Positions 29,862 to 44,485 of a stretch of 44,485 bases of DNA are shown here, piece by piece; position 1 is the stretch's first letter, and every line of letters begins with the position of its first letter. The DNA is taken from positions 1 through 44,485 of the forward strand of contig JBDRBK010000128.1 in NCBI GenBank assembly GCA_043822705.1, read 5' to 3'. The stretch comes from Fidelibacterota bacterium (lineage in GTDB: Bacteria; Fidelibacterota; Marinisomatia; Marinisomatales; TCS56). The notes under the pieces were generated by a model, which worked only from the letters and a program-made list of their open reading frames with translations, was not told the DNA's origin and did no database searches. Position numbers and translations under genes: made by a program.

Positions 29862-29893
29862 TGTAGGGACGACTCTCGAGAGTTGTCCCTACA
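29862..29893. repeat. REP-like GTAG-type palindrome
   Basis: TGTAGGGACGACTCTC/GAGAGTTGTCCCTACA, one G-T mismatch. Confidence 0.7.
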
Positions 29894-29941: not shown

Positions 29942-29975
29942 ACCTTCCAGGTCACAGAACAGCGACCTGGAAGGT
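29942..29975. repeat. 12-bp perfect inverted repeat (REP-like or RNA-stabilising hairpin)
   Basis: ACCTTCCAGGTC-N10-GACCTGGAAGGT just after the prpD stop; no U-tract. Confidence 0.65.
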
Positions 29976-29988
29976 TGTCCAAATCAAA

Positions 29989-31428
29989 TCAGACCGAAAC
30001 CACCATCTGACTCATGAAATCGCGGGCGCTCATGCTTTCGCAATTAAAGATCGTGTCTTTCAACTGTTTCAGTTCCTCGGCATCGAACAATCCGGCGGCC
30101 AGGGAATTGAATTTATTTTCCAGGTCGGTCATCGTCATCGGCTCGCGGGGATCGCCCTTGGGGTATTCCAGATATTCGTCGAATTCGCGGCCGTCGTTAG
30201 TGGTTATTTCCACCCGCGAGGGCTGTTTGGCCGGGAACATCTTTTCGAATTCCTGTGACGGAATCCCGACGATCTTATCAATCACTTTGTAAACTCGCGG
30301 ATCCTTTAACTTTTCATCGGTAAAGGATTCAGTGGTGATCTTCTTATCCACCATGGCCGCCGCCAGGCAATAAGGCAGGGAATGATCGGCGGTTTCCCGT
30401 GATTCGGGCCGGTACTTGGTGGGGTCGAACAGGATATCGTGGGCCTGGGCGAAGCAGGTCACTTTCACTTCCTTGATATCCGCGTAGGTCAGGTTATTGT
30501 TGGTCATCACCTTGAGCACGCAGGATATATGGGTATGGGTCAACGCCTCGGTCGGAAAGGCTTTCATGCTGCATTCCAGAATCTTGTAATTCTTACCCAG
30601 ATTACCAACCAGAGCGTCCACGTCCCAGCTCCAGGTCGAAACACCGTCGCGGCCTTCCATATCGCGTGGTTTCAACGCTTCTGCCTTGGCGTTCCAGCCG
30701 ATGAAAGTATCCATAAAACCTTCCTTGCCTTCGAACACTTTTTCGGTACCGCTGTAGCCTTTCTGGGCCAGCAGGGCGGCGAAGACCCCGGACTGCACCG
30801 CCATCGGATCGACGGTATTTTTCATCATCGTCAGTTTACCGGCGGTGGGGCAACCGATGGTGTGGTTGTGACAGCCGGAGATGCCGATGGCATTGACCAT
30901 CTGATCCACCGAAAGGCCCAGAATTTTACCGGCTACGATCGGTGACACGAACTGGGTCAGGGTGGCGTGGTGCCATTTCCGTTCGCGCACGCCGGGCTTG
31001 GCGAACAGGCACATGCGCTGTTCGAATTCGTAGGCCAGGACGACGGCGACGATCACATCTTTCATGGACGCATTGACTTTTTCAGCTACGGTCAGGGCGG
31101 CCGGGATAATATCACTGGGGTGGCTGGGGTCTTCTTTCCAGTAGATGTCGTTGAAGTCCAGGGCCCGGATCATCAGCGCGTTGATCAAAGTGGCGTTCAC
31201 AGCCGGAATCTGCTCGCCGAAACCGATAATGGTGGCCTCTTCCTTGCCGCCCATTTCCGAATACAGCTCGTGAATAGCGTTGACATCAAAAGTATGCATG
31301 CTGCCAAAGGCACAGCCGAAGGAATCATACAGATAGCGTTTTGCCTCCAGGATCACTTCCGGCGACAGGTCTTCATATTTCAGGTTCACGGCAAATTCGG
31401 CGATCCGCCGGGAGATTGATTTATCCAT
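29989..31428 (-). CDS. prpD: MmgE/PrpD-family tricarboxylate dehydratase
   Basis: RALDFND, SHPSD, ETADHSLPY, YPKGDPREPM; RBS AAAGGA before ATG 31428. Confidence 0.88.
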   Translation of the reverse strand: MDKSISRRIAEFAVNLKYEDLSPEVILEAKRYLYDSFGCAFGSMHTFDVNAIHELYSEMGGKEEATIIGFGEQIPAVNATLINALMIRALDFNDIYWKEDPSHPSDIIPAALTVAEKVNASMKDVIVAVVLAYEFEQRMCLFAKPGVRERKWHHATLTQFVSPIVAGKILGLSVDQMVNAIGISGCHNHTIGCPTAGKLTMMKNTVDPMAVQSGVFAALLAQKGYSGTEKVFEGKEGFMDTFIGWNAKAEALKPRDMEGRDGVSTWSWDVDALVGNLGKNYKILECSMKAFPTEALTHTHISCVLKVMTNNNLTYADIKEVKVTCFAQAHDILFDPTKYRPESRETADHSLPYCLAAAMVDKKITTESFTDEKLKDPRVYKVIDKIVGIPSQEFEKMFPAKQPSRVEITTNDGREFDEYLEYPKGDPREPMTMTDLENKFNSLAAGLFDAEELKQLKDTIFNCESMSARDFMSQMVVSV

Positions 31429-31444
31429 TGGAATTTCCTTTTTG

Positions 31445-31558
31445 TAACAACGAATCAAACGAAATCAATGAAATAACAATTTTGAAAGAAAAACATCGAA
31501 CGATGTTCCTGTTCAACTTTTGCTCTTTTCGTTCTTTTTTCTGTCCTCTTCGTTATTA
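31445..31558. repeat. Empty inverted-repeat element (9-nt units)
   Basis: Left TAACAACGAATCAAACGAAATCAATGAA; right end TTCGTTATTA; central AACATCG/CGATGTT. Confidence 0.55.
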
Positions 31559-31565
31559 ATTATCT

Positions 31566-32762
31566 TTAAAGCTTGGCGATGATGGCGTCGGCCATTTGGG
31601 TGGTAGAGGCAGCGCCTTTTTCGATCACGTCGGCCCGGCCGGACATTTTAGCCATGTCGTAGGTCCGCACCTTGCCTTCGGCTACGACATCGGCCACGGC
31701 CTTCCTGATCTTCTTGGCGATCGCCGGCTCATCGATGTAATCCAGCATCATGCAGGCCGATTCGACCATAGCGATTGGGTTGACGATCGATACCGGGTAA
31801 CCGGCATATTTGGGGGCGCTACCGTGAGTCGGTTCGAAAACGCCGATTCCGGTCTCGGGGTTGTACTGGGCGCTACAGGCAAAGCCCAGACCGCCGATCA
31901 GTCCGGCGAAACCATCGGAGACGATATCGCCGAACATGTTGCCGGCCACGATGACCCCATAATTCTCCGGATTCTTGGTCAGCCACATCATCTGGGCGTC
32001 GATATTGGTATTCCAGAGTTCGATGTCGGGGAAATCGGCCTTCTGCATCTGCTGGGCCATCTTGTACATCATGCCGGAGGTCTCGCGGATGACGTTGGGT
32101 TTTTCGCAGACCGTCACTGATTTATAACCCCATTTCCGGGCATGTTCGAAAGCTGCCCGCAGAATTCGATAGGTGGCATTTTTAGTGAAAATCCGAGTCG
32201 AAATCGAAATCTCATTTTTCGGAACCATACCGAAATTCTTCTTGAATTTGGGATGGGTCATCAGAGCATCATGCACCTGCTGCGGTGGGTCCGTCCATTC
32301 GACACCACCGTACAAACCCTCGGTGTTCTGGCGGAAAATTGCTACGTCAACCTCCGGTTCTTCAACCGTGTTGCCGGGACCGCGGCGAATGAAATTCAGC
32401 GGATTACCGGTATAAGTCCGGCAAGGCCGCAGACAGATATCCAGCCCGAAGTGCTGGCGCAGACCGACAATCGGACTGGAATATACCAGCCCTTTTTCCT
32501 TCAATTCAGGCGCCAGTTCGGCAAAAGCATCATCTTTGGGTTTGGAGGTGATCGCACCGAAGAGGCCGATCTTATGCTGCTCGATCAGGTCGAGTGTTCG
32601 CTGGGGTAGCGGGTTGCCCTCCTTGCACCAGAATTCCCAACCAATATCACCTTCCACGTAATCGGCTTCAAAGCCAGCGGCTTCCAGTACGCGGATCGCC
32701 TCATCCAATACTACCTTGCCGATCCCGTCGCCGGGCATCGCTACTATTGTTCTCTTTGCCAT
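31566..32762 (-). CDS. Isocitrate/isopropylmalate dehydrogenase family, homoisocitrate dehydrogenase-like
   Basis: PGDGIG, GAITS, YSSPIVGLR (as in fungal Lys12), RQNTEGLY, NMFGDIVSD, FEPTHGSAP. Confidence 0.85.
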   Translation of the reverse strand: MAKRTIVAMPGDGIGKVVLDEAIRVLEAAGFEADYVEGDIGWEFWCKEGNPLPQRTLDLIEQHKIGLFGAITSKPKDDAFAELAPELKEKGLVYSSPIVGLRQHFGLDICLRPCRTYTGNPLNFIRRGPGNTVEEPEVDVAIFRQNTEGLYGGVEWTDPPQQVHDALMTHPKFKKNFGMVPKNEISISTRIFTKNATYRILRAAFEHARKWGYKSVTVCEKPNVIRETSGMMYKMAQQMQKADFPDIELWNTNIDAQMMWLTKNPENYGVIVAGNMFGDIVSDGFAGLIGGLGFACSAQYNPETGIGVFEPTHGSAPKYAGYPVSIVNPIAMVESACMMLDYIDEPAIAKKIRKAVADVVAEGKVRTYDMAKMSGRADVIEKGAASTTQMADAIIAKL

Positions 32763-32777
32763 TTCACTTCCCTTGGT

Positions 32778-32842
32778 TAGCTACGAATTATACTGATTTC
32801 AACGATGTACATCATGGCATAATTCGTGTAATTAGTTGTTTA
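32778..32842. repeat. Empty inverted-repeat element, same family as GxxExxY flanks
   Basis: Left arm 21/29 identical (counted by eye) to the GxxExxY right arm; right end coincides with the homoaconitase stop. Confidence 0.6.
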
Positions 32843-34810
32843 TTGAATTTTTTTCTTAACCCAGTTTTCCAGTCCTTCGGTCAGGATCAGTTCCTGCGCC
32901 GCAGTACCGACTGTGCCGATATTGTACGTTTTACCGTCACAAGTCAGTTGGGCGGCGCTGAAATCGATGACGATCTCCAAGTCTGTGCGCACAGTCAGCT
33001 TAGTCTTGCCGAACTTGGCTTTCAAGTCCTCCAGCAACTCCGGCGCTTCCAGCACCAGGTAGCCGTTGTTGATGGCGTTGCGCTTATAGGTCTGGCTGAA
33101 AGAGCCGGCCAGCACCAGTTGGATGCCGCGATATTTCAGCGCGGTTGCGGCCTGTTCGCGGGAGCTGCCGGTGCCGAAATTGTATCCGCCCACCAAGATG
33201 TCACCCTTCTGCGCCAGCTGGCCGAATTCAGCATCATAGTTTTCCATCACGACTGCGGCCATCTGCACCGGGGTAAAATCATCGATGTAGGTATATTTTC
33301 CAGGATATATACCATCAGTATTCAGATTATCCTGATGACAGAAGATGGCTGTACCGGATAGCTTGGCCGGGAAACCATCCAACAGACTGGTGCTGACGGC
33401 CGCGCGCTTGGACGCCGGAGCCACTTTAATATTGCTCTTCACCAATTGTCCGGCGAATGGTGCCGGTCCGGCGATTTTGCCGGCCAGGGCGCTGGCGGCC
33501 ACCACCGCCGGTGACGCCAGGAAGGCCTGCGCTTCCTTGGAACCCATCCGGCCCTTAAAATTGCGGTTGGTGGCTGAAATACCGACCTCGCCATCCTGCA
33601 GTAATCCTACGCCCAGCCCGATGCAGGGACCGCAACCCGGCGGTATCGTAATTGCTCCGGTCGCGATCAGCGTTTGCCAGTCACCGCGACGTTCACTCTC
33701 CTCCTGCACTTCTCTGGAAGCGGCGGCGACATAAAATTCCACCCCAGCGGCCACTTTTTTACCTTTCACAACGGCGGCGGCTTCGGCCAGGTCGTCCACA
33801 CGACTGTTGACGCAGGAAACCAGGTAGGCCTTGTGGATTTTCAGGTTGCGCTTTTCCATCTCCGCCACGGAGGTCATGGTCTTGACATTGTGCGGTCCGG
33901 AAACACTGGGGCTGACCGTCGAGAGGTCGATTGTCAGTTCCTTGCTGTAATAAGCATCGGGATCGGCGGCAGGCGGATTCGCTTCCAATGCGGCAATGCG
34001 GGCCTTGTTCATCCGGGGATGAACGCCATTCCCGTCGGCATCAGAGGGAACGCCTTCCAGTCCACGCTTTTCGATTGCAGCAGCACGGTCATATAACCAT
34101 TTAATCGTGACAGTGTCGATCGGAAATAGTCCCACCAGAGCGCCCCATTCAGTGGTCATATTGGCAATCGCCAGACGTTCGTCGATGGTCAACCCGGCGA
34201 TACCGTCTCCACCGAATTCCAGGGCGAAATTAAGGACTTCGTCATGATTGAACACACCGCAGAGCGTGATGATCAAATCCTTGCCGGTTACGCCGGCCGG
34301 TAATTTGCCGGTCAGATTGACTTTGGCTACCGGCGGCACCTGCCACCAGGTCCGGCCCGTGGCCCAGATCGCTGCGGCGTCGGTGCGCACGATCGGCGTG
34401 CCCAGGCAACCCAATCCGCCGTACATATTGGAATGACTGTCGGACGCGACCGCCAGCGTGCCGGGGAAGGCATAGCCCTCTTCCAGCATGATCTGGTGAC
34501 CGATCCCGCGACCGGCGGGATAGAAATCGACGCCCATCGCTTTGGCGAAAGCCTCGATGCCGGCGTATTTCTTCAGGTTGGCCTCACTTTTATCCTGAAC
34601 GTTGTGGTCCAGGGCGAACATTGGCTGGCGCGGATTGGCGATTTTGCTGGCGCCGATCGAGCGAAACTTGGACATAACTGCACCGGTATTGTCATGGGTC
34701 AGGATATGGGCCGGCTGAATGGATAGATAATCACCGGCCTGTACTTTAACCCCAGCTGCTAAATCGACGGCATACCTCTGGGCAAGTTTTTCTACAAGGT
34801 TTTGAGACAT
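32840..34810 (-). CDS. lysF: Homoaconitase, single-chain fungal Lys4/LysF type
   Basis: THDN, LDHNVQDKSE.NL.KY, FYPAGRGIGHQIM, ASDSHSNMYGG, TWWQVPPV, SCVNSR, GCGPCIG, fused swivel GSSREQA. Confidence 0.9.
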   Translation of the reverse strand: MSQNLVEKLAQRYAVDLAAGVKVQAGDYLSIQPAHILTHDNTGAVMSKFRSIGASKIANPRQPMFALDHNVQDKSEANLKKYAGIEAFAKAMGVDFYPAGRGIGHQIMLEEGYAFPGTLAVASDSHSNMYGGLGCLGTPIVRTDAAAIWATGRTWWQVPPVAKVNLTGKLPAGVTGKDLIITLCGVFNHDEVLNFALEFGGDGIAGLTIDERLAIANMTTEWGALVGLFPIDTVTIKWLYDRAAAIEKRGLEGVPSDADGNGVHPRMNKARIAALEANPPAADPDAYYSKELTIDLSTVSPSVSGPHNVKTMTSVAEMEKRNLKIHKAYLVSCVNSRVDDLAEAAAVVKGKKVAAGVEFYVAAASREVQEESERRGDWQTLIATGAITIPPGCGPCIGLGVGLLQDGEVGISATNRNFKGRMGSKEAQAFLASPAVVAASALAGKIAGPAPFAGQLVKSNIKVAPASKRAAVSTSLLDGFPAKLSGTAIFCHQDNLNTDGIYPGKYTYIDDFTPVQMAAVVMENYDAEFGQLAQKGDILVGGYNFGTGSSREQAATALKYRGIQLVLAGSFSQTYKRNAINNGYLVLEAPELLEDLKAKFGKTKLTVRTDLEIVIDFSAAQLTCDGKTYNIGTVGTAAQELILTEGLENWVKKKIQ

Positions 34811-34828
34811 ATTATCACCGATTTATGA

Positions 34829-34900
34829 TGAGCCACGAAAAAGACAAGGAAATTGGAATTATACGTTTGTTCCTCGTTTAATTCGTTGCCTTCGTTGTTA
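34829..34900. repeat. Empty/degenerate inverted-repeat element (9-nt units)
   Basis: Right arm reverse complement TAACAACGAAGGCAACGAATTAAACGAG; left arm TGAGCCACGAAAAAGAC. Confidence 0.5.
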
Positions 34901-34909
34901 ATTGATTAT

Positions 34910-35443
34910 TTAAGCTTTGAATGGTTCGAATGATACAAAGTCGGCATGATGGACGATTATCGATTCCACCGTCCGGTAGCCCAGGTCACCTTCCTTGGAA
35001 TGGGTGCCGATGATATGCTGAACCTCCGCCGGCAGGTCGAACCGGGCGGCGATACCGACACCGCTGAATGGATGGCGCACGATTTTTCCGGCATTGCTGG
35101 TAATCAGCTTGCCGTCGACTATATCGTATTCCAGTAACTTGCCCACATCAATCAGGATTGCACCAGAAATCAGCAGATCCATATCGATTTTTATCTCCGC
35201 ACCGAAATTATCCTGCATGCGCTTGGCAATATCGACTGCCAGCTGGACACAGGTGCGCTTATGATTCATAAAGGACACTTTACAATCCTTGATCAGCAGC
35301 GAGAACGGAATTACTTCCAGATCTTCCGGCGTCAAGACACTGTTCTCAATCGCAAAGACCCAGGCCTGTAAAGTCTTTTCGCGCAATTCGTCATCCTTGA
35401 TCCAGTTGATCTCAGGCCAGATTTGTAAAACTTTTTCTCTCAT
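34910..35443 (-). CDS. HD-domain (HDIG-like) metalloprotein
   Basis: NH..., LIDVGK (HD read as ID), RHPFSG, HS, HHAD. Confidence 0.8.
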   Translation of the reverse strand: MREKVLQIWPEINWIKDDELREKTLQAWVFAIENSVLTPEDLEVIPFSLLIKDCKVSFMNHKRTCVQLAVDIAKRMQDNFGAEIKIDMDLLISGAILIDVGKLLEYDIVDGKLITSNAGKIVRHPFSGVGIAARFDLPAEVQHIIGTHSKEGDLGYRTVESIIVHHADFVSFEPFKA

Positions 35444-35465
35444 GAAAACTCCGATTTGGTGATTT

Positions 35466-35868
35466 AAGATTTAATATTGAATATTTAAGATTTCTTGGAC
35501 TTCTGTGTTTTACGAATGGAATAGAAAATTGCAGTTAATTCATTTGCCTCATTCAATAAATCTGCTATTCTATTCTCATCAAGCAGGTTTTCAGTTTTTA
35601 TGAATTCGATCCAGAAAAGCGTCTCATCAACTTCTTCCAAAACTATACTGATCTTTGCTGTAAAGGCGGCTCCTGATTGAGCTATTACAGCAGCCCGGTA
35701 GTTGGCAGCAACTGAAGTGGAACAGCGAATTAATTGACTATGCAAATGTCTCCCAAGAATTGAATCTGACAGAGAAAGAGCCAACTTTACGCATCGGTGC
35801 GCAAAATTCGTAGTCCGTTTGATCAGCTCTTTACTGTCCATATCCACGAATATTAAATATTAAATCTT
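35466..35868. mobile_element. Inverted-repeat-bounded cassette carrying four-helix-bundle gene
   Basis: AAGATTTAATATTGAATATT (35466-85) vs reverse complement of 35849-68, 19/20; 7-nt units; AT-rich. Confidence 0.6.
35485..35847 (-). CDS. Four helix bundle protein (23S rRNA IVS-protein family)
   Basis: QLIRCSTSVAANYRA..AQS...F..KISIVLEE.DET.FW; start GTG 35847 or ATG 35841. Confidence 0.9.
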   Translation of the reverse strand: MDMDSKELIKRTTNFAHRCVKLALSLSDSILGRHLHSQLIRCSTSVAANYRAAVIAQSGAAFTAKISIVLEEVDETLFWIEFIKTENLLDENRIADLLNEANELTAIFYSIRKTQKSKKS

Positions 35869-35877
35869 CATTATTAA

Positions 35878-37437
35878 TTATTCTTTTACTCCGTAGATTG
35901 AGTCGATGACGGTGCCATCGACCCACTTGACGATACCGATGACCTGGTCGGTCAATTCCGGTTTCTGCGGCGGACCGCCGATCAGGTCGTCCACCTCGGC
36001 CTTGATTTCTTCGATTGTCCGGATCGGCAGACCACTGTTTTTGACCGCGTCCAGCAAATCGGTGCGTAGCGGATTAATCGCTATCCCCCGTTCGGTGACG
36101 ATCACATCGATCAGTTCACCGGGTCCGACCAGGGTCGTGACTTCATCCACAATCACCGGAATCCGGTCACGGAAAGCGGGAATCGGCAGAATCGTGCACT
36201 TACTGAACAAACAGTTCTGCCAGCCACCGATACCGTGGAGCATCTTGCCGTCGGAGTGGGTCACCACATTGGCATTGAAATTCACATCGACTTCCGTGGC
36301 GCCCAGCACCACCACATCCAGCATCGAGGCGAAATTACCCTTGCCGTGCCAGTTGTAGCTGGTGAACGGCGAGGTGTTGACGTGCCCGGAATTCTCGCGC
36401 ATCGAGCGCACACCCTCCAGATCGAAGGTCTGCCCGTCCAGGATGAAATCGGTCAGGCCCTGCTCCAGCATTTCCACCAGGTATTTGGTGGAGCCGCCCC
36501 GGATAAACCGCGCCTTGATCCCGGCTTCCTTCATCATTTCTTTGAGATAAATGGCAAAGGCCAGGGATGTCCCCCCGGCACCGGCCTGGAAACTGAAGCC
36601 ATCCTTTAGAATCCCGGCGGCCTGAACGAATTTGGCCGTCAGTTCGGCGATGTACAGGCGGTCCGGCGATTTGGTTAATTCGGTTGTACCGCTGACGATC
36701 TTGGCCGGTTCGCCGATTTTATCCAGCACCACCACGTAATCCACATTCTGGCCCTGAATCTGCCATGGCACACAGGGGAACGGCACCAGATTATCGGTGA
36801 CAATGATCACCTTATCGGCATGGATCGAATCCACCAGGCCAAAGCCCAGCAGACCACAGGCCGAGGGACCGCGATCGCCGGTAGCGTTTCCGAAAGCATC
36901 GGCGGTGGGTGCGGCGATTACGGCGATGTCAATGTGGACTTCCCCATCCTGCACCGCCTGCCAGCGGCCGCCATGGCTGCGCAGAACGGCCGTACCCTTC
37001 ATTTTGCCACGGGAGGCGTACTCACCCAGCGGACCATTCAGGGAGCCTTCGACCCAGGATACCACGCCGTTTTCCATGTGCTCGATCACCGGCTGATGGC
37101 AGGGGAAGGCCGCCGACGGGAACCAGCGCAGACCTTTTACCCCTTTTTGGGCGGCAATATCGAAAACCTGGTTCATCACCAGATCACCGTTGCGGAAATG
37201 ATGGTGGGACGAAATCGTCATTCCGTCTTTCAACCCGCATTTTTCCAGTGCTTCCCCGAGCGAGGCGACGGTTTTATTGCCGTCCATGGGGTAGTCGCTG
37301 CAGGTGCGGATCGGCAGCACCGGTTTCAAACCGGTCGGTTTGTACTTCCCGACGCCCTGGTAGGGCACCTGCTGGACACCATTGATTTCCGTCGGGACCA
37401 GTCGTCCGGCGGCGTTTTTTACCATTTCAGTTTTCAT
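35878..37437 (-). CDS. citF: Citrate lyase alpha subunit / citrate CoA-transferase
   Basis: GLKDGMTISSHHHFRNGD, RSHGGR, SACG.LG, FQAGAGG, LGATEVD.NFN.NV, ERGIAINP. Confidence 0.92.
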   Translation of the reverse strand: MKTEMVKNAAGRLVPTEINGVQQVPYQGVGKYKPTGLKPVLPIRTCSDYPMDGNKTVASLGEALEKCGLKDGMTISSHHHFRNGDLVMNQVFDIAAQKGVKGLRWFPSAAFPCHQPVIEHMENGVVSWVEGSLNGPLGEYASRGKMKGTAVLRSHGGRWQAVQDGEVHIDIAVIAAPTADAFGNATGDRGPSACGLLGFGLVDSIHADKVIIVTDNLVPFPCVPWQIQGQNVDYVVVLDKIGEPAKIVSGTTELTKSPDRLYIAELTAKFVQAAGILKDGFSFQAGAGGTSLAFAIYLKEMMKEAGIKARFIRGGSTKYLVEMLEQGLTDFILDGQTFDLEGVRSMRENSGHVNTSPFTSYNWHGKGNFASMLDVVVLGATEVDVNFNANVVTHSDGKMLHGIGGWQNCLFSKCTILPIPAFRDRIPVIVDEVTTLVGPGELIDVIVTERGIAINPLRTDLLDAVKNSGLPIRTIEEIKAEVDDLIGGPPQKPELTDQVIGIVKWVDGTVIDSIYGVKE

Positions 37438-37441
37438 TTTT

Positions 37442-37883
37442 TAACCACTGATTTCACAGATTACACAGATTCATTTTATTATTCTTTCATATTCCAGTGA
37501 TTTGCCACCAAAGTTCATCAACAATCCAAGTTTCAGCTTAGTGACATTCAGATAATTCAATAGTTGGGCTCTCTCAATATCACCAATTTGTTTGATGGCT
37601 TTTAATTCGACAATCACCTTCCCATCAACAACTAAATCACCAATAGACTCTTTGATATTTACGCCTTTATAGTCTACAACAAATTTTTTCTGCTGTTCAA
37701 AGGGTATGTTTTGATTCTTTAATTCAACCACAAAAGCTTCTTCATACACAGATTCAAGAAAGCCAGAACCAAGTATTTTATGGACTTCCATCGCGGCTCC
37801 GATTATTTGATATGTCAACTCCTTGTATAAATAATCCTTCATACGATTCCATTTATCTGTGTAATCAGTGTAATCTGTGGTTA
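37442..37883. mobile_element. Inverted-repeat-bounded cassette carrying GxxExxY gene
   Basis: 29-bp arms 37442-37470 and 37855-37883, 26/29 complementary, built of 9-nt CACAGATTA units. Confidence 0.65.
37471..37842 (-). CDS. GxxExxY protein (PD-(D/E)xK nuclease superfamily)
   Basis: IIGAAMEVHK.LGSGFLESVYE, DLVV...IVELKA, AQLLNYL, GLLMNFG. Confidence 0.93.
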   Translation of the reverse strand: MKDYLYKELTYQIIGAAMEVHKILGSGFLESVYEEAFVVELKNQNIPFEQQKKFVVDYKGVNIKESIGDLVVDGKVIVELKAIKQIGDIERAQLLNYLNVTKLKLGLLMNFGGKSLEYERIIK

Positions 37884-39095
37884 CCCTAATTCTTCTTTCC
37901 AGTTATCAGATAACAATCCGGAGGCGATCGCCAGATTGATAGTTTGCTGCGCCCGTTTTACTACTGGCGGATCGATCATTTTATTGCCCAGCGCCACGAC
38001 CCCCAAACCTTGAGCCTGGGCCTTATCGAAAGCCAGCTCGATCTTTTGGGCTTTTTCAATTTCAGTCGCCGTGGGGGCGAACGCTTCGTGCAGTGGCTTG
38101 ATCTGACGCGGGTGGATGCAGCCTTTGCCGTCGAATCCCAGCGCTTTCGCTTCCAGCACCGACGCCCGCAACCCGGCTTCATTACCCACATCGCTGTAGA
38201 CCGTGTCGATCGCCTGCAGACCGGCAGCCCGCGCCGCGTTGACCAGCATCCCGCGGGCAAAGAATGATTCCTTGCCTTCATCGGTCCGCGGTACGCCCAG
38301 ATCGGCGGTGTAGTCTTCCAGTCCGATCGCCAGCGCGACAATGTTCGGAGAAGCTTCGGCAATTTCCAGTGCTTTCAGGATGCCCCGGCCGCTTTCCAGG
38401 ATCGGCATCAGATAAACCGGCTCGCTGCGGCCGCAGGCCCGGCTGATTTCGGCGATCTTATTATCGACAGCGATAATCTGTTCGGCCGACTCCACTTTGG
38501 GTATTAGAACAAGATGCACATTTTGGGGTACGATAAATTCCAGATCAATCAAACCCATTTCGCCCTGGTTGATCCGGACCATTCGCTCGGCGCCCATAAA
38601 ATCAAGGGACCGCAGGGCGTTACGCACCAGATAGCGGGTTTCCACTTTTTCCGGCGGACCGACCGAATCTTCCAGGTCCAGGATCAGACCGTCCGGTTGG
38701 TGGATACCGGCGTTCAGGGCCAATTTGGGTTGATTACCCGGCAAGTACAAGCGGCTGCGGCGAAAACGATCGCGCCGCGATGAATACCGGCAGAATTCCT
38801 TCATTTCCGGTAATGCTTCGGCTGTCAGCTCCGGGTGAGCCTGCTTGATGGCGGCTTCGATCCGGGCCATCATTACAAACGGTACCGCACCGAAATCGTC
38901 GATTTCCAGTAAGCCGGAATTAATACCCAGTTTGGTCAATACTTCCCGCGCCAGTTTATCAATGGCTTTATCAAAGAGAATACCGACTTTACTCTGAATT
39001 TTTACTGTTTGTTGGGCTGCCTGAGGCGTATAAGTGACGCGCACATCAGAACGCGGTTTATCGCCTTTCGGTCCAACGGTGAATGATGGTGCCAT
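37881..39095 (-). CDS. citE: Citrate lyase ACP (CitD)-beta subunit (CitE) fusion
   Basis: N-terminal RSD...SKV..LF...I...DDFGA..F...ARIEAA (CitD-like); RRSRLYLPGN, LDLEDSV, IPKVE, GFDGKGCIHPRQI, MIDPPV (CitE). Confidence 0.88.
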   Translation of the reverse strand: MAPSFTVGPKGDKPRSDVRVTYTPQAAQQTVKIQSKVGILFDKAIDKLAREVLTKLGINSGLLEIDDFGAVPFVMMARIEAAIKQAHPELTAEALPEMKEFCRYSSRRDRFRRSRLYLPGNQPKLALNAGIHQPDGLILDLEDSVGPPEKVETRYLVRNALRSLDFMGAERMVRINQGEMGLIDLEFIVPQNVHLVLIPKVESAEQIIAVDNKIAEISRACGRSEPVYLMPILESGRGILKALEIAEASPNIVALAIGLEDYTADLGVPRTDEGKESFFARGMLVNAARAAGLQAIDTVYSDVGNEAGLRASVLEAKALGFDGKGCIHPRQIKPLHEAFAPTATEIEKAQKIELAFDKAQAQGLGVVALGNKMIDPPVVKRAQQTINLAIASGLLSDNWKEELG

Positions 39096-39334: not shown

Positions 39335-39425
39335 TTGATTTCCGAAGTGAGATACTAAATTTGGGAATAGTTATGCAAGCAATAGCTCCTTTATTCAAAA
39401 TTCATTCCGATAATCGGGGTTAGCA

Positions 39426-42400
39426 ATGATTAGAAATCGACTCTTAAGCTGGTCCGTTTTACTCAGCCTGCTACTCACGGTCCAATGTACCGTTGACAGC
39501 GACAATATTACCGGTCCCAGCGACGAACCGGATAAATATATCGTGCTGAAAAGTCTGACCGCGAGTAAGAATCAGGTCTTCACCCAGGGCGATCAGGCAA
39601 TCATCGCATTGACCGTGGCCAACGCTGATGACCAGCCCCCGGATCCCGGTATCGCCGTGAAGTTTACCGCTCAACTGGGCCAGTTCGCCACCAGCACCGA
39701 TACCACCGATACCGGCGGTGTCGCCCGGGCGACCTATATATCCGGGGATGTTCCCGGAGTGGACAAGATATTCGCCAGTACCGGAATTAAAACCGATTCC
39801 CTGTTGCTCTACCTGGTCAACCAGGCCGCCGATCTGCAACTGACCGCCAGCGCGACCGCAATACTCGGCGACGGCGTCACGACCGCCACGATTACCGCCA
39901 GCGCCCGCGATGATGCCGACCAACCGCTGGCCAACATGCGGATTTATTTCAACAGCGATCACGGCCAGATCACCGCCAGCGGCACCACCGCCGGCGATGG
40001 TACCGTTCAGGCCACCCTCACCAGCGTCGCCGACAGCCTGGATGTGGTAACCGTGGTCCGGGCCGCCTTCGAACCATTCACTGCGGCAACAGCTAAAATC
40101 GTTCAAAGCGTACCGAATGTCAGTAAGGTTGCCGAACGTGAATTCAGGACCGCCGGTAGTAAAAAAATGGAGCGTATGCTGTCTAACCGACGGAAAACAA
40201 TTTTGGAAAAACCGACCACCGCGCCCATCCCCCAAACGTTGACAAGAACCACCGCCGGACTGTATGACAGTCTGACCGTCACCTTCCGGGGGATTACGAT
40301 TCTGCTGCAGAAAAACAAATCGGAACTGCTGGCCAACGGTGAGGACCTGGCCAATATTACCATCACCGTCTACGAAACCACTACCGGCAATCCGGTGACC
40401 AATCACAGTTTTACCGCCACGACTACCCGGGGCACCGTCCTCGGGGATTCCCGCACCGACGGCAGCGGCCGGGCCACAATCCAACTGCGCAGCGGCACGG
40501 TTCCCGGCACCGCCACGGTCAATGTTACCATCGGCGGCACTCTGATCAGCAGTACCAAAATCAATTTCATCTCGACCTATCCGACCCATTTCAGCTTGTC
40601 CCAGAGCGACCATATTATCCTGGCCGACGGCCAGTCGGCGGCCACGATAACGGCACTGGTGATCGACACCCTGGGTAATCCGGTTCAGGGCGCCGGCATC
40701 CTGATCAGCAGCGACCTGGGTGACCTGGAATACGTCACCACCATCACCAACGCCGACGGCGAAGTGGAAGTGGATCTGATCAGCTTGGCTAATAAAACCG
40801 ATATGACCGCCACCGTCCGGGCCAGCGTAGTCGGGTATCCCAGACTCGCCGACAGCGTCACCGTCGACTTCAAGGGTATCACCCTTTCGGCCTATGCCAA
40901 TGATAATCTGCTGGTGGCCAATGGCATCAACACAACAACGGTCACAGCTGTAGTGTTCCAAACATCGACCAACAGTGCCGTCGCCGGCCGGCCGGTGTAT
41001 TTTTCCACATCCCTGGGAACGATTGCCAGTCCGGTGACCAGCTCCAGCAGCGGCGTGGCCGCTACCACCCTGACCAGCGGTATATTTCCCGGCCTGGCCA
41101 CCATCGTGGTGCGTTTCGGCGATCTGCTGACCGATACACTGACGGTCGAATATTTAAGCAGCGGCGCTAACAATCTGGTGCTGGCCCGTGATCAGGAAGC
41201 GATCCGCGCAAACGGCAAGGCCACAACCACGATCAGCGCCACCGTGACCGATACCCTGGGCGATCCCGTTTCCGGCACGCTGGTCAATTTCAGTACCGGC
41301 GCCGGGACTTTGAGCAACCTGTACGCCACCAGCGACGTGGACGGCATCGCCCTGGTCGTTCTGACCGGCCCCGCCAGCGTCATCGATCTGACCACCACAG
41401 TGCGTGCCAGCGTCAATACCAGCCTCAACCGCAGTCTGCTGGCCGGCAATATTTACGATCCCGCCCTGCCGACGCTTCGCTATACCACGGCTTCCGGACC
41501 GATTCGACCGCGTAGCGCCGCCATTCCGGCCACGGCCGCCCTCAATGACAGCGTCCAGGTCAGCTTCAAGGGGATCACCGTCGATTCCTACGCTACGGAC
41601 CAGGCCATCGTGGCCGACGGCAGCAGCCACACCACGATTATCGCCACCGTGCGCGAAACTTCAACCAATATTCCGGTTCAGGACGAGACCGTCCTGTTCA
41701 GTACCAACCTGGGTACGATCTCCGGGGCGCTCAACACCTCGGCCAGCGGCGTAGCCAGCGGCACCCTGACCAGCGGCCTGATTGCCGGCACGGCGCGGGT
41801 GATAATCCGCTACGGCGCCACCCTGTACGATACGACGACCGTGGATTTCTTCGACTCCGAGCCGGACCAGTTCACACTGGAGCTGAATCCCGCCACAGTT
41901 CTGGCTGACGGTCAGGCCACCCTGACACTGACGGCCCTGATTCTGGACACCCTCGATAATCCGGTGACCAGCGAAGCAGTCAGCTTCAGCACAACCCTAG
42001 GAAGCCTGTCCGCCGCGACCGCCTTGACTGATGAAGATGGTTTTGCCACCGTCACACTGACCGGCACGGCCCGCGCCAGCGATACAACCGTGACAGTTAA
42101 AAGCTGGGTAACGGGCTATCCCGAACTAGTGGACTCTGTAACGACCAAATTCCGCGGATTGACAATGTCAACCCAGGCTTCCGATCTGTCGATCACCGCC
42201 GACGGCAGCTCGATGACCGATATTATCGTCACCTTGTACGAAACCAGCAGCCATTCAGCCATTCCCAACCAGATCGTACGTTTCGCCACCAATCTGGGAA
42301 CGATCACCAACGCGGTCGCTACCGATATCAACGGTATCGCCAGCGCCACCCTGACCAGTGGAATTTTAGCCGGTACCGCCAGCGTTTTTGTTTCCACCGG

Positions 42401-44485
42401 GGACGTCCATAATGACACGATCCAGATCGGGTTCCTGAACCACAACCCGCATCATATATCAATTGCACCGGACGCCGTCAGCATCCTGGCCGACGGCAGC
42501 AGCGGTACCGTAATAACCGCCCAGGTCCTGGATACGCTGGATAATCCGGTGGCCGGGGCCGCGGTCAATTTCACCAGCGACAACGGGCAACTGGACCGGC
42601 TCAGCGGCATCACCGATGGTGACGGCTATATCTACACCACCCTGACCGGCCTGCCGGACAGTCTGGACCGAACCGCCAAAGTGCTGGGATCGGTCACCTA
42701 CTATGCCGGCGTAAAGGATAGCGTCGAAATCAGCCTGCGGGGAATGATCCTCAATATCAGCGCCGATCCGACCCGGCTGCCGGCCAATGGCTATTCCACC
42801 AGCGTGATCAGCATCAGCCTGCGGGAATCGGGTAACGGCAATCCGGTCACGGGGCGGGCGATCGCTCTGGGTACGAACCGTGGCACGATTATTTCGACCG
42901 TCACCACCAACTCGATGGGAACGGCCGAGACGGAACTGACCAGCAACACTACGCCGGGAACTGCGACCATTACCGCCACTGCCGGTATCAGTAAAACCAC
43001 AACGGTGGAATTCCTGCCGATCATTCCCAAGGATCTATCAATGATAGTGGCGGCGACCAGCCTGCTGGCCAACGGCTCCGCCATTACTAACCTGACCGCC
43101 ACTGTAATGGATACGCTGGGTAATCCGGTGAATAATGCCCTGCTCAGCTTCAGCAGTGACGCGGGCACATTGTCGAAAACGCTGACGCCCACCAACACCA
43201 GCGGTCAGGCCACCGTGACGCTCACCAGCACCGCCAGCAGCAACGATCTGACAGCCCAGGTAATCTGTAAAGCTTTTTCCTATCCGACGGTGACTGATAC
43301 GGTGGAAGTTGGATTCCGGGGTATCACGCTGACAATCGGCGCCAGTCCGCAGCAGATTCCCGCCAATGGCAGCACCACTGCCACGATCACCGCCGGCCTG
43401 CAGGAAACCACCAATGGTAACCCCCTGACCGGCACCACCGTGTTCTGGGGAACCTCGCTGGGCGTAATTCCGGCATCATCGGTGACCAACAGTCTCGGCT
43501 TCGCCACCGCCACTCTGACCAGCGGCATCACCAGCGGCACCGCCACGATCACAGCCACCGCGGGCGTGTCGAAAACCACTACTGTTGAATTGTTACCGGT
43601 AACCCCATCCGTCATCGCCGTCAGTGTCAGCGCCACCAGTATCATCGCCGACCGGGCCGCCACCAGCACCATCAGCGCCACCGTCAGCGATGTTTTGGGC
43701 AATCCGGTTTCGGGAACGTTGGTCAATTTCGCCACGGCGGTTGGTACCCTTAGCAGCGCTTCCGCCACCACCGGCACCAGCGGACTGGCCCAGGTAATTC
43801 TCACCAGCCCGGCCCGCACCAGCGATACCACCGCCGCCGTTACGGCCACTGTGGCCGCTTACCCGGCGGTCAACACCAGTACTGGTATCGAATACCGCGG
43901 CCTCACCCTGACCGCCAGCGCCGATCCGAACCAGATTCCCGCCAACGGCAACGCCGTGTCCAGTATTCTGGCCATTCTGACCGAGACCACCAACGGCAAT
44001 CCAGTGGTCAGTAAAATCCTGGCCGTCTCCACCGACCGCGGCTCGATTCCCGCCCAGGGAATTACCGGCACCAACGGCAAATCAACGATTATTCTGACGG
44101 CCGGCACCAGCGCCGGCACGGCTACGATCACGGTTAAAGCCGGCGTGACCGCCACAACCACGGTCGATTTCATTTCGACGGCACCGACAGCGGTCGTCCT
44201 GATTGCCTCCGCCAGCAGCATCCTGGCGGACCAGAACGACAGCAGTATTCTGACCGCCACCGTCACCGACGCCCTCGATAACCCGGTCAGCGGCAAAACG
44301 GTTAACTTCACCATCAGTAATGGCACGGTTGCCAATGCCAGCGGCGTCACCAATGGCGCCGGACTGGCTGTCACCACTGTCACCGGTGTTGCCGGCACGA
44401 TCGATCAGGTTGCCGAAGCCAAAGCGGTGCTGGCCGATTACAGCAGTGTCCGTGACAGTCTGGATATCGATCTGCGGGGTGTGAC
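39426..44485 (+). CDS. Giant invasin/intimin-type Ig-like (Big_1) repeat lipoprotein, 3'-truncated (at least 1686 aa); absent from ORF track
   Basis: ATG 39426 MIRNRLLSWSVLLSLLLTVQC; about 16 repeats with A(D/N)G...D..GNPV.G..V.F...G...T...G.A...LT; same frame at the window end. Confidence 0.9.
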   Translation, partial: MIRNRLLSWSVLLSLLLTVQCTVDSDNITGPSDEPDKYIVLKSLTASKNQVFTQGDQAIIALTVANADDQPPDPGIAVKFTAQLGQFATSTDTTDTGGVARATYISGDVPGVDKIFASTGIKTDSLLLYLVNQAADLQLTASATAILGDGVTTATITASARDDADQPLANMRIYFNSDHGQITASGTTAGDGTVQATLTSVADSLDVVTVVRAAFEPFTAATAKIVQSVPNVSKVAEREFRTAGSKKMERMLSNRRKTILEKPTTAPIPQTLTRTTAGLYDSLTVTFRGITILLQKNKSELLANGEDLANITITVYETTTGNPVTNHSFTATTTRGTVLGDSRTDGSGRATIQLRSGTVPGTATVNVTIGGTLISSTKINFISTYPTHFSLSQSDHIILADGQSAATITALVIDTLGNPVQGAGILISSDLGDLEYVTTITNADGEVEVDLISLANKTDMTATVRASVVGYPRLADSVTVDFKGITLSAYANDNLLVANGINTTTVTAVVFQTSTNSAVAGRPVYFSTSLGTIASPVTSSSSGVAATTLTSGIFPGLATIVVRFGDLLTDTLTVEYLSSGANNLVLARDQEAIRANGKATTTISATVTDTLGDPVSGTLVNFSTGAGTLSNLYATSDVDGIALVVLTGPASVIDLTTTVRASVNTSLNRSLLAGNIYDPALPTLRYTTASGPIRPRSAAIPATAALNDSVQVSFKGITVDSYATDQAIVADGSSHTTIIATVRETSTNIPVQDETVLFSTNLGTISGALNTSASGVASGTLTSGLIAGTARVIIRYGATLYDTTTVDFFDSEPDQFTLELNPATVLADGQATLTLTALILDTLDNPVTSEAVSFSTTLGSLSAATALTDEDGFATVTLTGTARASDTTVTVKSWVTGYPELVDSVTTKFRGLTMSTQASDLSITADGSSMTDIIVTLYETSSHSAIPNQIVRFATNLGTITNAVATDINGIASATLTSGILAGTASVFVSTGDVHNDTIQIGFLNHNPHHISIAPDAVSILADGSSGTVITAQVLDTLDNPVAGAAVNFTSDNGQLDRLSGITDGDGYIYTTLTGLPDSLDRTAKVLGSVTYYAGVKDSVEISLRGMILNISADPTRLPANGYSTSVISISLRESGNGNPVTGRAIALGTNRGTIISTVTTNSMGTAETELTSNTTPGTATITATAGISKTTTVEFLPIIPKDLSMIVAATSLLANGSAITNLTATVMDTLGNPVNNALLSFSSDAGTLSKTLTPTNTSGQATVTLTSTASSNDLTAQVICKAFSYPTVTDTVEVGFRGITLTIGASPQQIPANGSTTATITAGLQETTNGNPLTGTTVFWGTSLGVIPASSVTNSLGFATATLTSGITSGTATITATAGVSKTTTVELLPVTPSVIAVSVSATSIIADRAATSTISATVSDVLGNPVSGTLVNFATAVGTLSSASATTGTSGLAQVILTSPARTSDTTAAVTATVAAYPAVNTSTGIEYRGLTLTASADPNQIPANGNAVSSILAILTETTNGNPVVSKILAVSTDRGSIPAQGITGTNGKSTIILTAGTSAGTATITVKAGVTATTTVDFISTAPTAVVLIASASSILADQNDSSILTATVTDALDNPVSGKTVNFTISNGTVANASGVTNGAGLAVTTVTGVAGTIDQVAEAKAVLADYSSVRDSLDIDLRGV

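Follow-up and report, generated by a model that had tools for sequence, protein, structure and literature searches.

The question raised by this locus is how inverted repeats came to lie between the genes of a metabolic operon, and whether the small genes found between some of them have a part in it. The locus lies in a stretch of 44,485 nucleotides from a Fidelibacterota bacterium (contig JBDRBK010000128.1; the whole stretch is called the window) and is a minus-strand citrate-metabolism operon consisting of fused citD/E, citF, an HD protein gene, homoaconitase (acn), an IDH-family gene (idh) and a prpD-family gene. Inverted repeat arms are present at all five gene junctions, and two of the five arm pairs enclose a small gene, encoding a GxxExxY protein in one case and a four-helix-bundle protein in the other. 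On balance, the results suggest that these are selfish, promoter-less, operon-resident cassettes, in which the nuclease would act on its own arms and host recombination would do the copying. The arms and the enclosed genes are as follows.

37855-37883, minus strand: left arm of the GxxExxY cassette, ACCACAGATT type, three RCNRA cores at a 9-nt period
37471-37842, minus strand: GxxExxY gene (TIGR04256 / PF13366), 123 amino acids, at the citE|citF junction
37442-37470, plus strand: right arm of the GxxExxY cassette, ending 4 nt before the citF start codon
35849-35880, minus strand: left arm of the four-helix-bundle cassette, 7-nt units, abutting the citF stop
35485-35847, minus strand: four-helix-bundle gene (TIGR02436 / PF05635, S23p/IVP family), at the citF|HD junction
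35461-35492, plus strand: right arm of the four-helix-bundle cassette, overlapping the stop of the four-helix gene
34829-34900: gene-less arm pair at HD|homoaconitase, with a clean TAACAACGAA-type left arm and a degenerate right arm; GxxExxY lies here in relatives
32778-32842: gene-less arm pair at homoaconitase|idh, the left arm starting on the TAA stop; resembles the spacer of genome G002
31445-31558: gene-less arm pair at idh|prpD, TAACAACGAA type with an inner hairpin; another arm type lies here in the family relatives G002, G005 and G006

Both gene-bearing pairs and the three gene-less pairs that an earlier note on this DNA had described are real. The arms of the GxxExxY cassette are 29 nt each and 90% complementary, and those of the four-helix cassette are ~79% complementary. 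The 9-nt arms that the note had placed at four junctions are present, but they are of two types, and each gene-less pair combines one clean 9-nt array with a degenerate arm. The window's arms thus represent three lineages and not one family: two 9-nt types, ACCACAGATT and TAACAACGAA, linked to GxxExxY, and one 7-nt type linked to the four-helix gene. The two 9-nt types accompany different GxxExxY clades in relatives. The conserved part of the 9-nt arms is RCC-RCNRA-N3-5-RCNRA and not TAAC, the start given for them in the note; an arm does begin exactly at the upstream TAA stop in two cases, citE and homoaconitase. At idh|prpD and HD|acn the window carries TAACAACGAA arms where family relatives carry the ACCACAGATT type, which points to arm replacement. 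The GxxExxY clade linked to TAACAACGAA arms is unmatched in the window's assembly; in G004 and G038 it stands before idh. The G+C content was 31-38% in all five junction inserts compared to 49-57% in the three host genes measured. An Rfam search gave nothing at gathering score, and scans for promoters and terminators gave results near shuffle level. As a separate observation, the clean TAACAACGAA arms at 31445-31471 and 34874-34900 are mutually inverted (78% over 27 nt) and enclose homoaconitase and idh; no inversion or loss of this block was noticed in relatives.

GxxExxY is a predicted PD-(D/E)xK nuclease with a Cas4-like fold. Its structure model (pLDDT 94) contains the PD-(D/E)xK core, and the E..D..ExK residues are conserved (E30 in 56/56, D69 in 56/56, E79 in 54/56 and K81 in 55/56), as are Q93 and Y97, which we take to be the QxxxY motif of the RecB family. 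The window's copy is intact at all six positions. The best structural match of the model was Cas4 SSO0001 (PDB 4IC1; Foldseek E 1e-4; VIA Z 8.5, rmsd 4.2, 100 aligned). Restriction-enzyme domains lie within 1 Z of this match, so that the fold leaves the substrate unfixed. Besides the fold match, GxxExxY shares the D69-E79-K81 triad with Cas4/RecB-type nucleases; its length is 123 amino acids compared to ~200 for the latter. A sequence search found no solved GxxExxY structure. The accessible part of one paper lists PDDEXK_3 as being of unknown function with multiple transfers (PMC3424549). The four-helix protein matches PDB 2RLD, and its family is, according to the accessible text of two papers, linked to Avd of diversity-generating retroelements (PMC10053308) and found between cas genes (PMC3936711). 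It is no known enzyme and would act as a binder depending on host enzymes. For both cargos the nonsynonymous rate (dN) is far below the synonymous rate (dS), indicating purifying selection; six of 62 near-full-length GxxExxY matches carry a stop.

The states of the five junctions were compared among orthologous loci, 26 from genomes and the best 80 of 264 from metagenomes. After four duplicates were dropped, the final set comprised 93 loci, the window included, with 260 callable junctions. By score thresholds, which mis-called one citF stop (L164), GxxExxY was found at 21 junctions, the four-helix gene at 20, gene-less 9-nt arms at 43 and short arm-free spacers at 108, the rest being other inserts. 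GxxExxY occurs at four of the five junctions (5, 3, 9, 4 and 0 cases), as does the four-helix gene (0, 13, 3, 3 and 1 cases), and the cargo is in sense in all 41 filled junctions. The distribution is patchy: the same junctions are short and arm-free, armed and gene-less, or filled in relatives, in agreement with the proposal of the earlier note. In G002, the first ~27 GxxExxY codons are kept inside a gene-less pair. Armed junctions of relatives also hold other cargo, namely HNH, YhcG/DUF1016 and nucleotidyltransferase-HEPN genes; these are genes of a selfish type and are counted in favour of selfish cassettes.

The position of the arms is such that the host stop and ribosome site survive. In 33/49 cases the left arm starts between -1 and +4 nt relative to the stop; at the three junctions with a Shine-Dalgarno-like motif, 14-21 nt separate the end of the right arm from the start, and the motif is kept in 22/22. 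Such survival is predicted by targeting and by selection alike, and since arm-free spacers are mostly -8 to ~35 nt long, the targeting of stop codons that had been proposed earlier is indistinguishable from selection. In some loci the 7-nt arms enter the last host codons and supply the stop (L160:2500-2574, also the citF ends of L177 and L175), and former cassettes may thereby have left scars in the host proteins, C-termini such as KIEE/KIED being candidates. A match of the 7-nt unit to the upstream gene end was rejected as a general rule, being true for some loci only (L160, L177, L231); 11/45 cases ranked in the top tenth versus 4 in the control (mean rank 0.63 versus 0.52). The idea that 7-nt units carry stops for all three frames was also rejected (42/86 units versus 46 shuffled).

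The phylogeny showed that GxxExxY follows the host operon and not the genome. Among 35 genome-derived copies the operon label changed 11 times on the tree compared to 22.3 times when shuffled (minimum 18 of 500), while the genome label changed 51 times among 60 copies compared to 48.6 when shuffled. For 28 of the 35, the nearest relative from another genus lies in the same operon, at the same junction in 11 cases, a different one in 12 and an uncertain one in 5. The tree is short (125 columns) and 21 of its 68 branches are open. The window's GxxExxY at citE|citF is sister to the HD|acn copies of G005 and G006 (79-81% identity, support 97), and the copies upstream of citF were rejected as one clade (p-AU 6e-73). 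Another starred group unites citF|HD and acn|idh copies, and groups from a purine operon unite purE|purB with purB|purF and further junctions. Identity between GxxExxY copies of the same genome does not exceed 54% (76 within-genome pairs), and it is 39-48% where two copies share one citrate operon. Taken together, the operon-following tree, the low identity within genomes and the sisterhood of citE|citF and HD|acn copies indicate that GxxExxY has changed junctions within the operon and has not multiplied as a transposon does. The claim of a single MITE-like (miniature inverted-repeat transposable element) family multiplying in the genome is not upheld by these identities, nor by the junctions, which show no visible target duplication (closest empty/filled pair, 86.5% citF identity). 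Similar proteins tend to have similar arms (Mantel rho 0.37, p 0.001, 52 of 71 rows), and in both families the arm type follows the cargo's own tree.

The four-helix cassette behaves differently. The copies found at citF|HD group together (support 100); their synonymous divergence is similar to that of the host and dN/dS is near 0.06, implying that the cassette is old at this junction and has been patchily lost. It seems to have been passed down vertically there for long, so that the earlier proposal of a mobile element is not supported for this cassette. In L160 a four-helix gene 90% identical to the citF|HD copy of G036 lies at thyX|radC, 3.7 kb upstream; there the citF|HD spacer is arm-free, and the arm at thyX|radC supplies the last codons and the stop of thyX.

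As a whole, the window's genome assembly, which is 93% complete, contains two GxxExxY matches (47% identical to each other) and seven four-helix matches. By eye, all these copies have periodic flanks with their own unit and lie in a same-strand gene run, one four-helix copy being at a contig end. Arms are rare elsewhere in this genome: a profile built from relatives' arms gave 24 matches at a score of at least 14, versus 6 and 10 in two controls. Paired gene-less copies were found on contigs C46, C123 and C149, and the matches of two strict citrate-type arm patterns are confined to the citrate operon (2/2 each). A search of the genome gave no reverse transcriptase match. A scan of genome contigs with a single GxxExxY protein gave three loci. 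The same kind of single-protein scan, which finds close relatives only, confirmed no GxxExxY relative on viral contigs. The spacer at G000:C123:14455-14613 combines a left arm of 7-nt period with a right arm of the 9-nt type and is a possible hybrid of two families.

Across the order, GxxExxY was found in 29/41 genomes and the four-helix gene in 31/41. Flanks were fetched for part of the matches, giving 71 GxxExxY rows and 50 four-helix rows in which a few broken genes are counted twice. Self-inverted flanks at a score of at least 28 were present in 39/71 and 38/50 rows, respectively, compared to 1-2% of shuffles and 4-7% of cross-pairs. Where callable, the neighbours of GxxExxY are on the same strand in 61/63 cases upstream and 66/67 downstream, and those of the four-helix gene in 43/46 and 44/45. 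GxxExxY arms read RCC-(RCNRA-N3-5) x2 or x3; four-helix arms consist of 6-8-nt units that are lineage-specific. A strict 9-period pattern matched 130 times in the 29 GxxExxY-bearing genomes, a count that includes the genes' own flanking arms, and 5 times in the 12 genomes that lack GxxExxY (reversed control, 20 overall). Arms therefore recur and co-occur with GxxExxY, and of the three findings that the earlier note had named as fatal to its proposal (no recurrence, no co-occurrence, vertically conserved spacers) none holds in full. Gene-less citrate-type arms cluster locally (G005 10/18, G006 10/15, G038 4/4, G000 2/2), and rnf-type arms gave six matches. In six genomes GxxExxY lineages lie in or before a lexA-dinB operon (L065, L069, L072 and L132 at lexA|dinB; L129 and L075 before lexA); these lineages could be DNA-damage-induced.

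A mechanism that would account for these patterns can be outlined. The cargo gene would be expressed from the host transcript. Because it lacks signs of a separate promoter and would rely on that transcript, its sense orientation needs no special mechanism. Mobilisation by GxxExxY, as the earlier note had suggested, would be plausible: the protein would bind to the RCNRA words repeated in its own arms and may nick or cut DNA wherever arms of that type occur. With the ~25-nt arms and adjoining host genes serving as homology, host recombination would then copy arms to other junctions, replace older arms and occasionally carry the gene to a neighbouring junction. Gene-less pairs would be left behind where the gene is lost. 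If one gene per arm type is kept per genome, a lineage would travel with its operon for long. The four-helix cassette would be a parallel family with 7-nt arms.

The reading as selfish cassettes has to be held against a number of observations. That GxxExxY cuts or moves anything is a prediction from sequence comparison and a structure model. No recent GxxExxY duplicate was found in any genome, and no pair of loci is close enough to show a fresh insertion, the best contrast being at 86.5% citF identity. A recognisable piece of the gene is present in only one of the 43 gene-less armed junctions, and G013 has arms but no GxxExxY match. The local clustering of arms is not general: in a purine-operon lineage 13/20 arm matches are distant from the gene, and since the citrate operon itself was the source of the citrate-type patterns, the clustering test is circular for them. 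Covariation of arms and proteins is also expected from simple linkage, the residue-to-base scan reached a best adjusted mutual information of 0.33 with kinship uncorrected, and p-values are overstated because kin are not independent. The four-helix cassette has stayed at citF|HD approximately as long as the host divergence, which also fits a benefit to the host.

One alternative is that the cassettes are domesticated post-transcriptional modules, whose arms pair in mRNA as stems bound by RNase III or another protein, loop out the spacer or cargo and tune downstream genes, in the manner of the S23p intervening sequence (IVS) of 23S rRNA, with movement as a rare accident. The invariable sense orientation of the cargo and its long retention under purifying selection agree with this, as do the one RNase III gene in the genome and the IVS of Coxiella, which is described in the accessible text as having heptamer repeats and being cut out by RNase III (PMC4990558). 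On the mRNA strand, the window's three gene-less pairs have stronger folds than shuffled sequences (z -2.6 for 34829-34900, -2.0 for 32778-32842 and -3.0 for 31445-31558), and the idh|prpD pair uses G.U pairs, its antisense z being -1.3 and its DNA z 0.07. Among gene-less pairs generally the sense strand folds better in 16/26 (Wilcoxon p 0.036, kin not independent). However, no excess of G.U on the sense strand was found (102 versus 100 for GxxExxY, 112 versus 157 for four-helix and 23 versus 21 for gene-less pairs), and 26-28% of positions in arm pairs are mismatched, mostly by transversions, whereas the stem in Coxiella pairs almost perfectly. The similarity of paired units across the stem (0.70) does not exceed that of units along an arm (0.73), as expected for repeated binding words. 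Close relatives also run the same operon with short arm-free spacers, and the cassettes lie in unrelated operons. The loop-out of mRNA that the earlier note had offered as an alternative is thus favoured slightly by the fold bias and not by G.U usage, and RNA modules of this kind seem to us unlikely. We give still less credit to the possibility that the arms are passive recombination hot spots and the genes passengers kept for another job, such as defence or DNA repair, and shuffled by host recombination or another enzyme. Several unrelated cargos at armed junctions, a gene that does not multiply within genomes, a four-helix protein with no known catalytic role and five Y1 (RAYT-like) genes, all on contigs other than the window's, speak for it. 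Against it, arm type follows the cargo tree in both families, and arms are at background in 11/12 genomes without GxxExxY. Two of the five Y1 genes adjoin their own, different palindromes, and one alone has a single 9-nt-like match within 400 nt.

Two further explanations concern known mobile elements. GxxExxY as a cut-and-paste transposase of an autonomous/non-autonomous MITE-type pair, with TA or TAA target duplication, is improbable. The inverted arms are terminal, gene-less copies are scattered at low number, and TAACC, the commonest start of the 102 citrate-operon arms (46), can be read as TA plus element; but the starts vary (AAACC 18, GAACC 5, others), the best empty/filled pair, L212/L231 (86.5% citF identity), shows no visible duplication, and GxxExxY, with 123 amino acids, has no DDE or HUH motif. 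Near-identical gene copies, which such a transposase should leave in a genome, are missing from the 76 within-genome pairs, and the tree follows operons. The remaining comparison is with integron-like attC sites, TAAC...GTTA hairpins after stops, standing without a nearby integrase. An xAAC start in 85 of the same 102 arms, hairpins that follow stops and co-oriented genes recall such sites, but the AAC/GTT ends are not invariant, many arms of the wider set starting with TAGCC, TTGCC, TCACC or TTACC. Moreover, the hairpin encloses the gene instead of following it, the flanking genes are those of a conserved metabolic operon, and none of four candidate matches in the 93% complete assembly exceeded the TIGR02249 cut-off. 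This explanation is largely refuted and we regard it as very improbable.

Among described systems, the selfish cassettes would in their working be closest to a partnership of the RAYT/REPIN or Ssn type with a different enzyme; in enzyme and repeat form they belong to neither RAYT/REPIN nor Ssn/SRM. These systems are compared here as presented in the accessible parts of the papers cited. RAYT/REPIN elements, including REPtron/TIRtron, likewise have a small gene between its own inverted repeats, gene-less doublets, a repeat type tied to one gene lineage and closest gene relatives in other genomes (PMC3116915, PMC3733652), and gene-less doublets of the gene's own repeat do occur elsewhere in the window's genome at low copy number. 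The enzyme between the repeats is PD-(D/E)xK here and HUH/Y1 in RAYT, and the arms are tandem arrays of a 5-nt RCNRA core, whereas RAYT repeats are short palindromes tagged with GTAG or CGTC. Copy number is tens at most compared to hundreds in RAYT/REPIN, and, unlike RAYT/REPIN, the cassettes lie in sense inside operons and their lineages follow the operon. Ssn with its NTS/SRM repeats has a small single-domain nuclease gene with the repeat on both sides and also gene-less (PMC11893778), as do the cassettes, and an origin like that of insertion sequences has been proposed for it (PMC11893778). Ssn is a GIY-YIG nuclease with a 20-50-nt hairpin motif and has been shown to cleave its cognate repeat (PMC11893778), whereas GxxExxY is PD-(D/E)xK by Pfam and fold and its cleavage is predicted.

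The four-helix cassette resembles the ORF-bearing IVS of 23S rRNA with S23p, which has the same protein family, terminal inverted repeats, tandem heptamers before the ORF and sense orientation (PMC4990558). A PF05635 ORF in sense between inverted repeats with heptamers was found for this cassette only. The rRNA IVS occupies a helix of 23S rRNA, and RNase III cuts its 28-bp stem, which is nearly perfect (PMC4990558); the cassette lies at an mRNA junction, citF|HD, with the less complementary arms given above. Heptamer repeats of Xanthomonas, Nostoc (PMC4692102) and Beggiatoaceae (PMC4679880) also form 7-nt arrays between co-directional genes. Those of Xanthomonas follow stops, have a G-rich sense strand and frequently form inverted pairs (70 in Xcc), and they are treated as quadruplex elements (PMC4692102). 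Unlike the four-helix cassette, they have no partner gene named in the accessible parts of these papers (PMC4692102, PMC4679880). A literature search, with subscription papers mostly outside its reach, found no paper linking GxxExxY or four-helix genes to their arms, and the accessible part of a 2026 preprint on noncoding space held no relevant passage.

We tentatively extend the argument beyond this operon. GxxExxY could be an unrecognised family of ~120-residue, repeat-reading mobilising nucleases, and four-helix (S23p/Avd-like) proteins could serve a parallel family. Jointly they might represent selfish DNA of a class that has the operon as its niche, each lineage riding one transcript for long and hopping between junctions with no transposase, integrase or reverse transcriptase, with 23S rRNA intervening sequences and unexplained bacterial heptamer hairpins as its outposts. 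TIGR04256 and TIGR02436, large families of unknown function, would gain a concrete candidate substrate in their own flanking repeats, and the precedent of Ssn indicates that such gene-repeat pairs can yield tiny sequence-specific nucleases. A possible origin is also offered for ORF-bearing rRNA intervening sequences and for published intergenic 7-9-nt inverted arrays with no named partner gene. What this locus adds is a comparison junction by junction, in which fidelity to the operon and movement between its junctions are seen together.

The host genes between which the arms lie make up a conserved operon (29989-39095), and citF was matched in 27 of the 41 genomes searched.

37881-39095, minus strand: fused citrate lyase gamma/beta gene (citD/E-like), whose TAA stop is the start of the left arm
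35878-37437, minus strand: citrate lyase alpha gene (citF)
34910-35443, minus strand: HD-domain protein gene (TIGR00277)
32840-34810, minus strand: homoaconitase-family hydratase gene
31566-32762, minus strand: isocitrate/isopropylmalate dehydrogenase family gene (idh)
29989-31428, minus strand: MmgE/PrpD family gene (prpD)

Upstream of the operon, window positions ~39400-44485 contain several overlapping minus-strand frames that are V/T/A-rich, and the region resembles the antisense of a large repetitive plus-strand surface protein. At the other end, the spacer between prpD and an acyl-CoA dehydrogenase gene contains two different REP-like palindromes adjoining each other (29863-29892 and 29942-29975). 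The AACCTT type has 19 matches in the genome versus 3 in the control, with four copies beside a Y1 gene on C106, and GTAGGG occurs four times beside a broken Y1 gene on C149.

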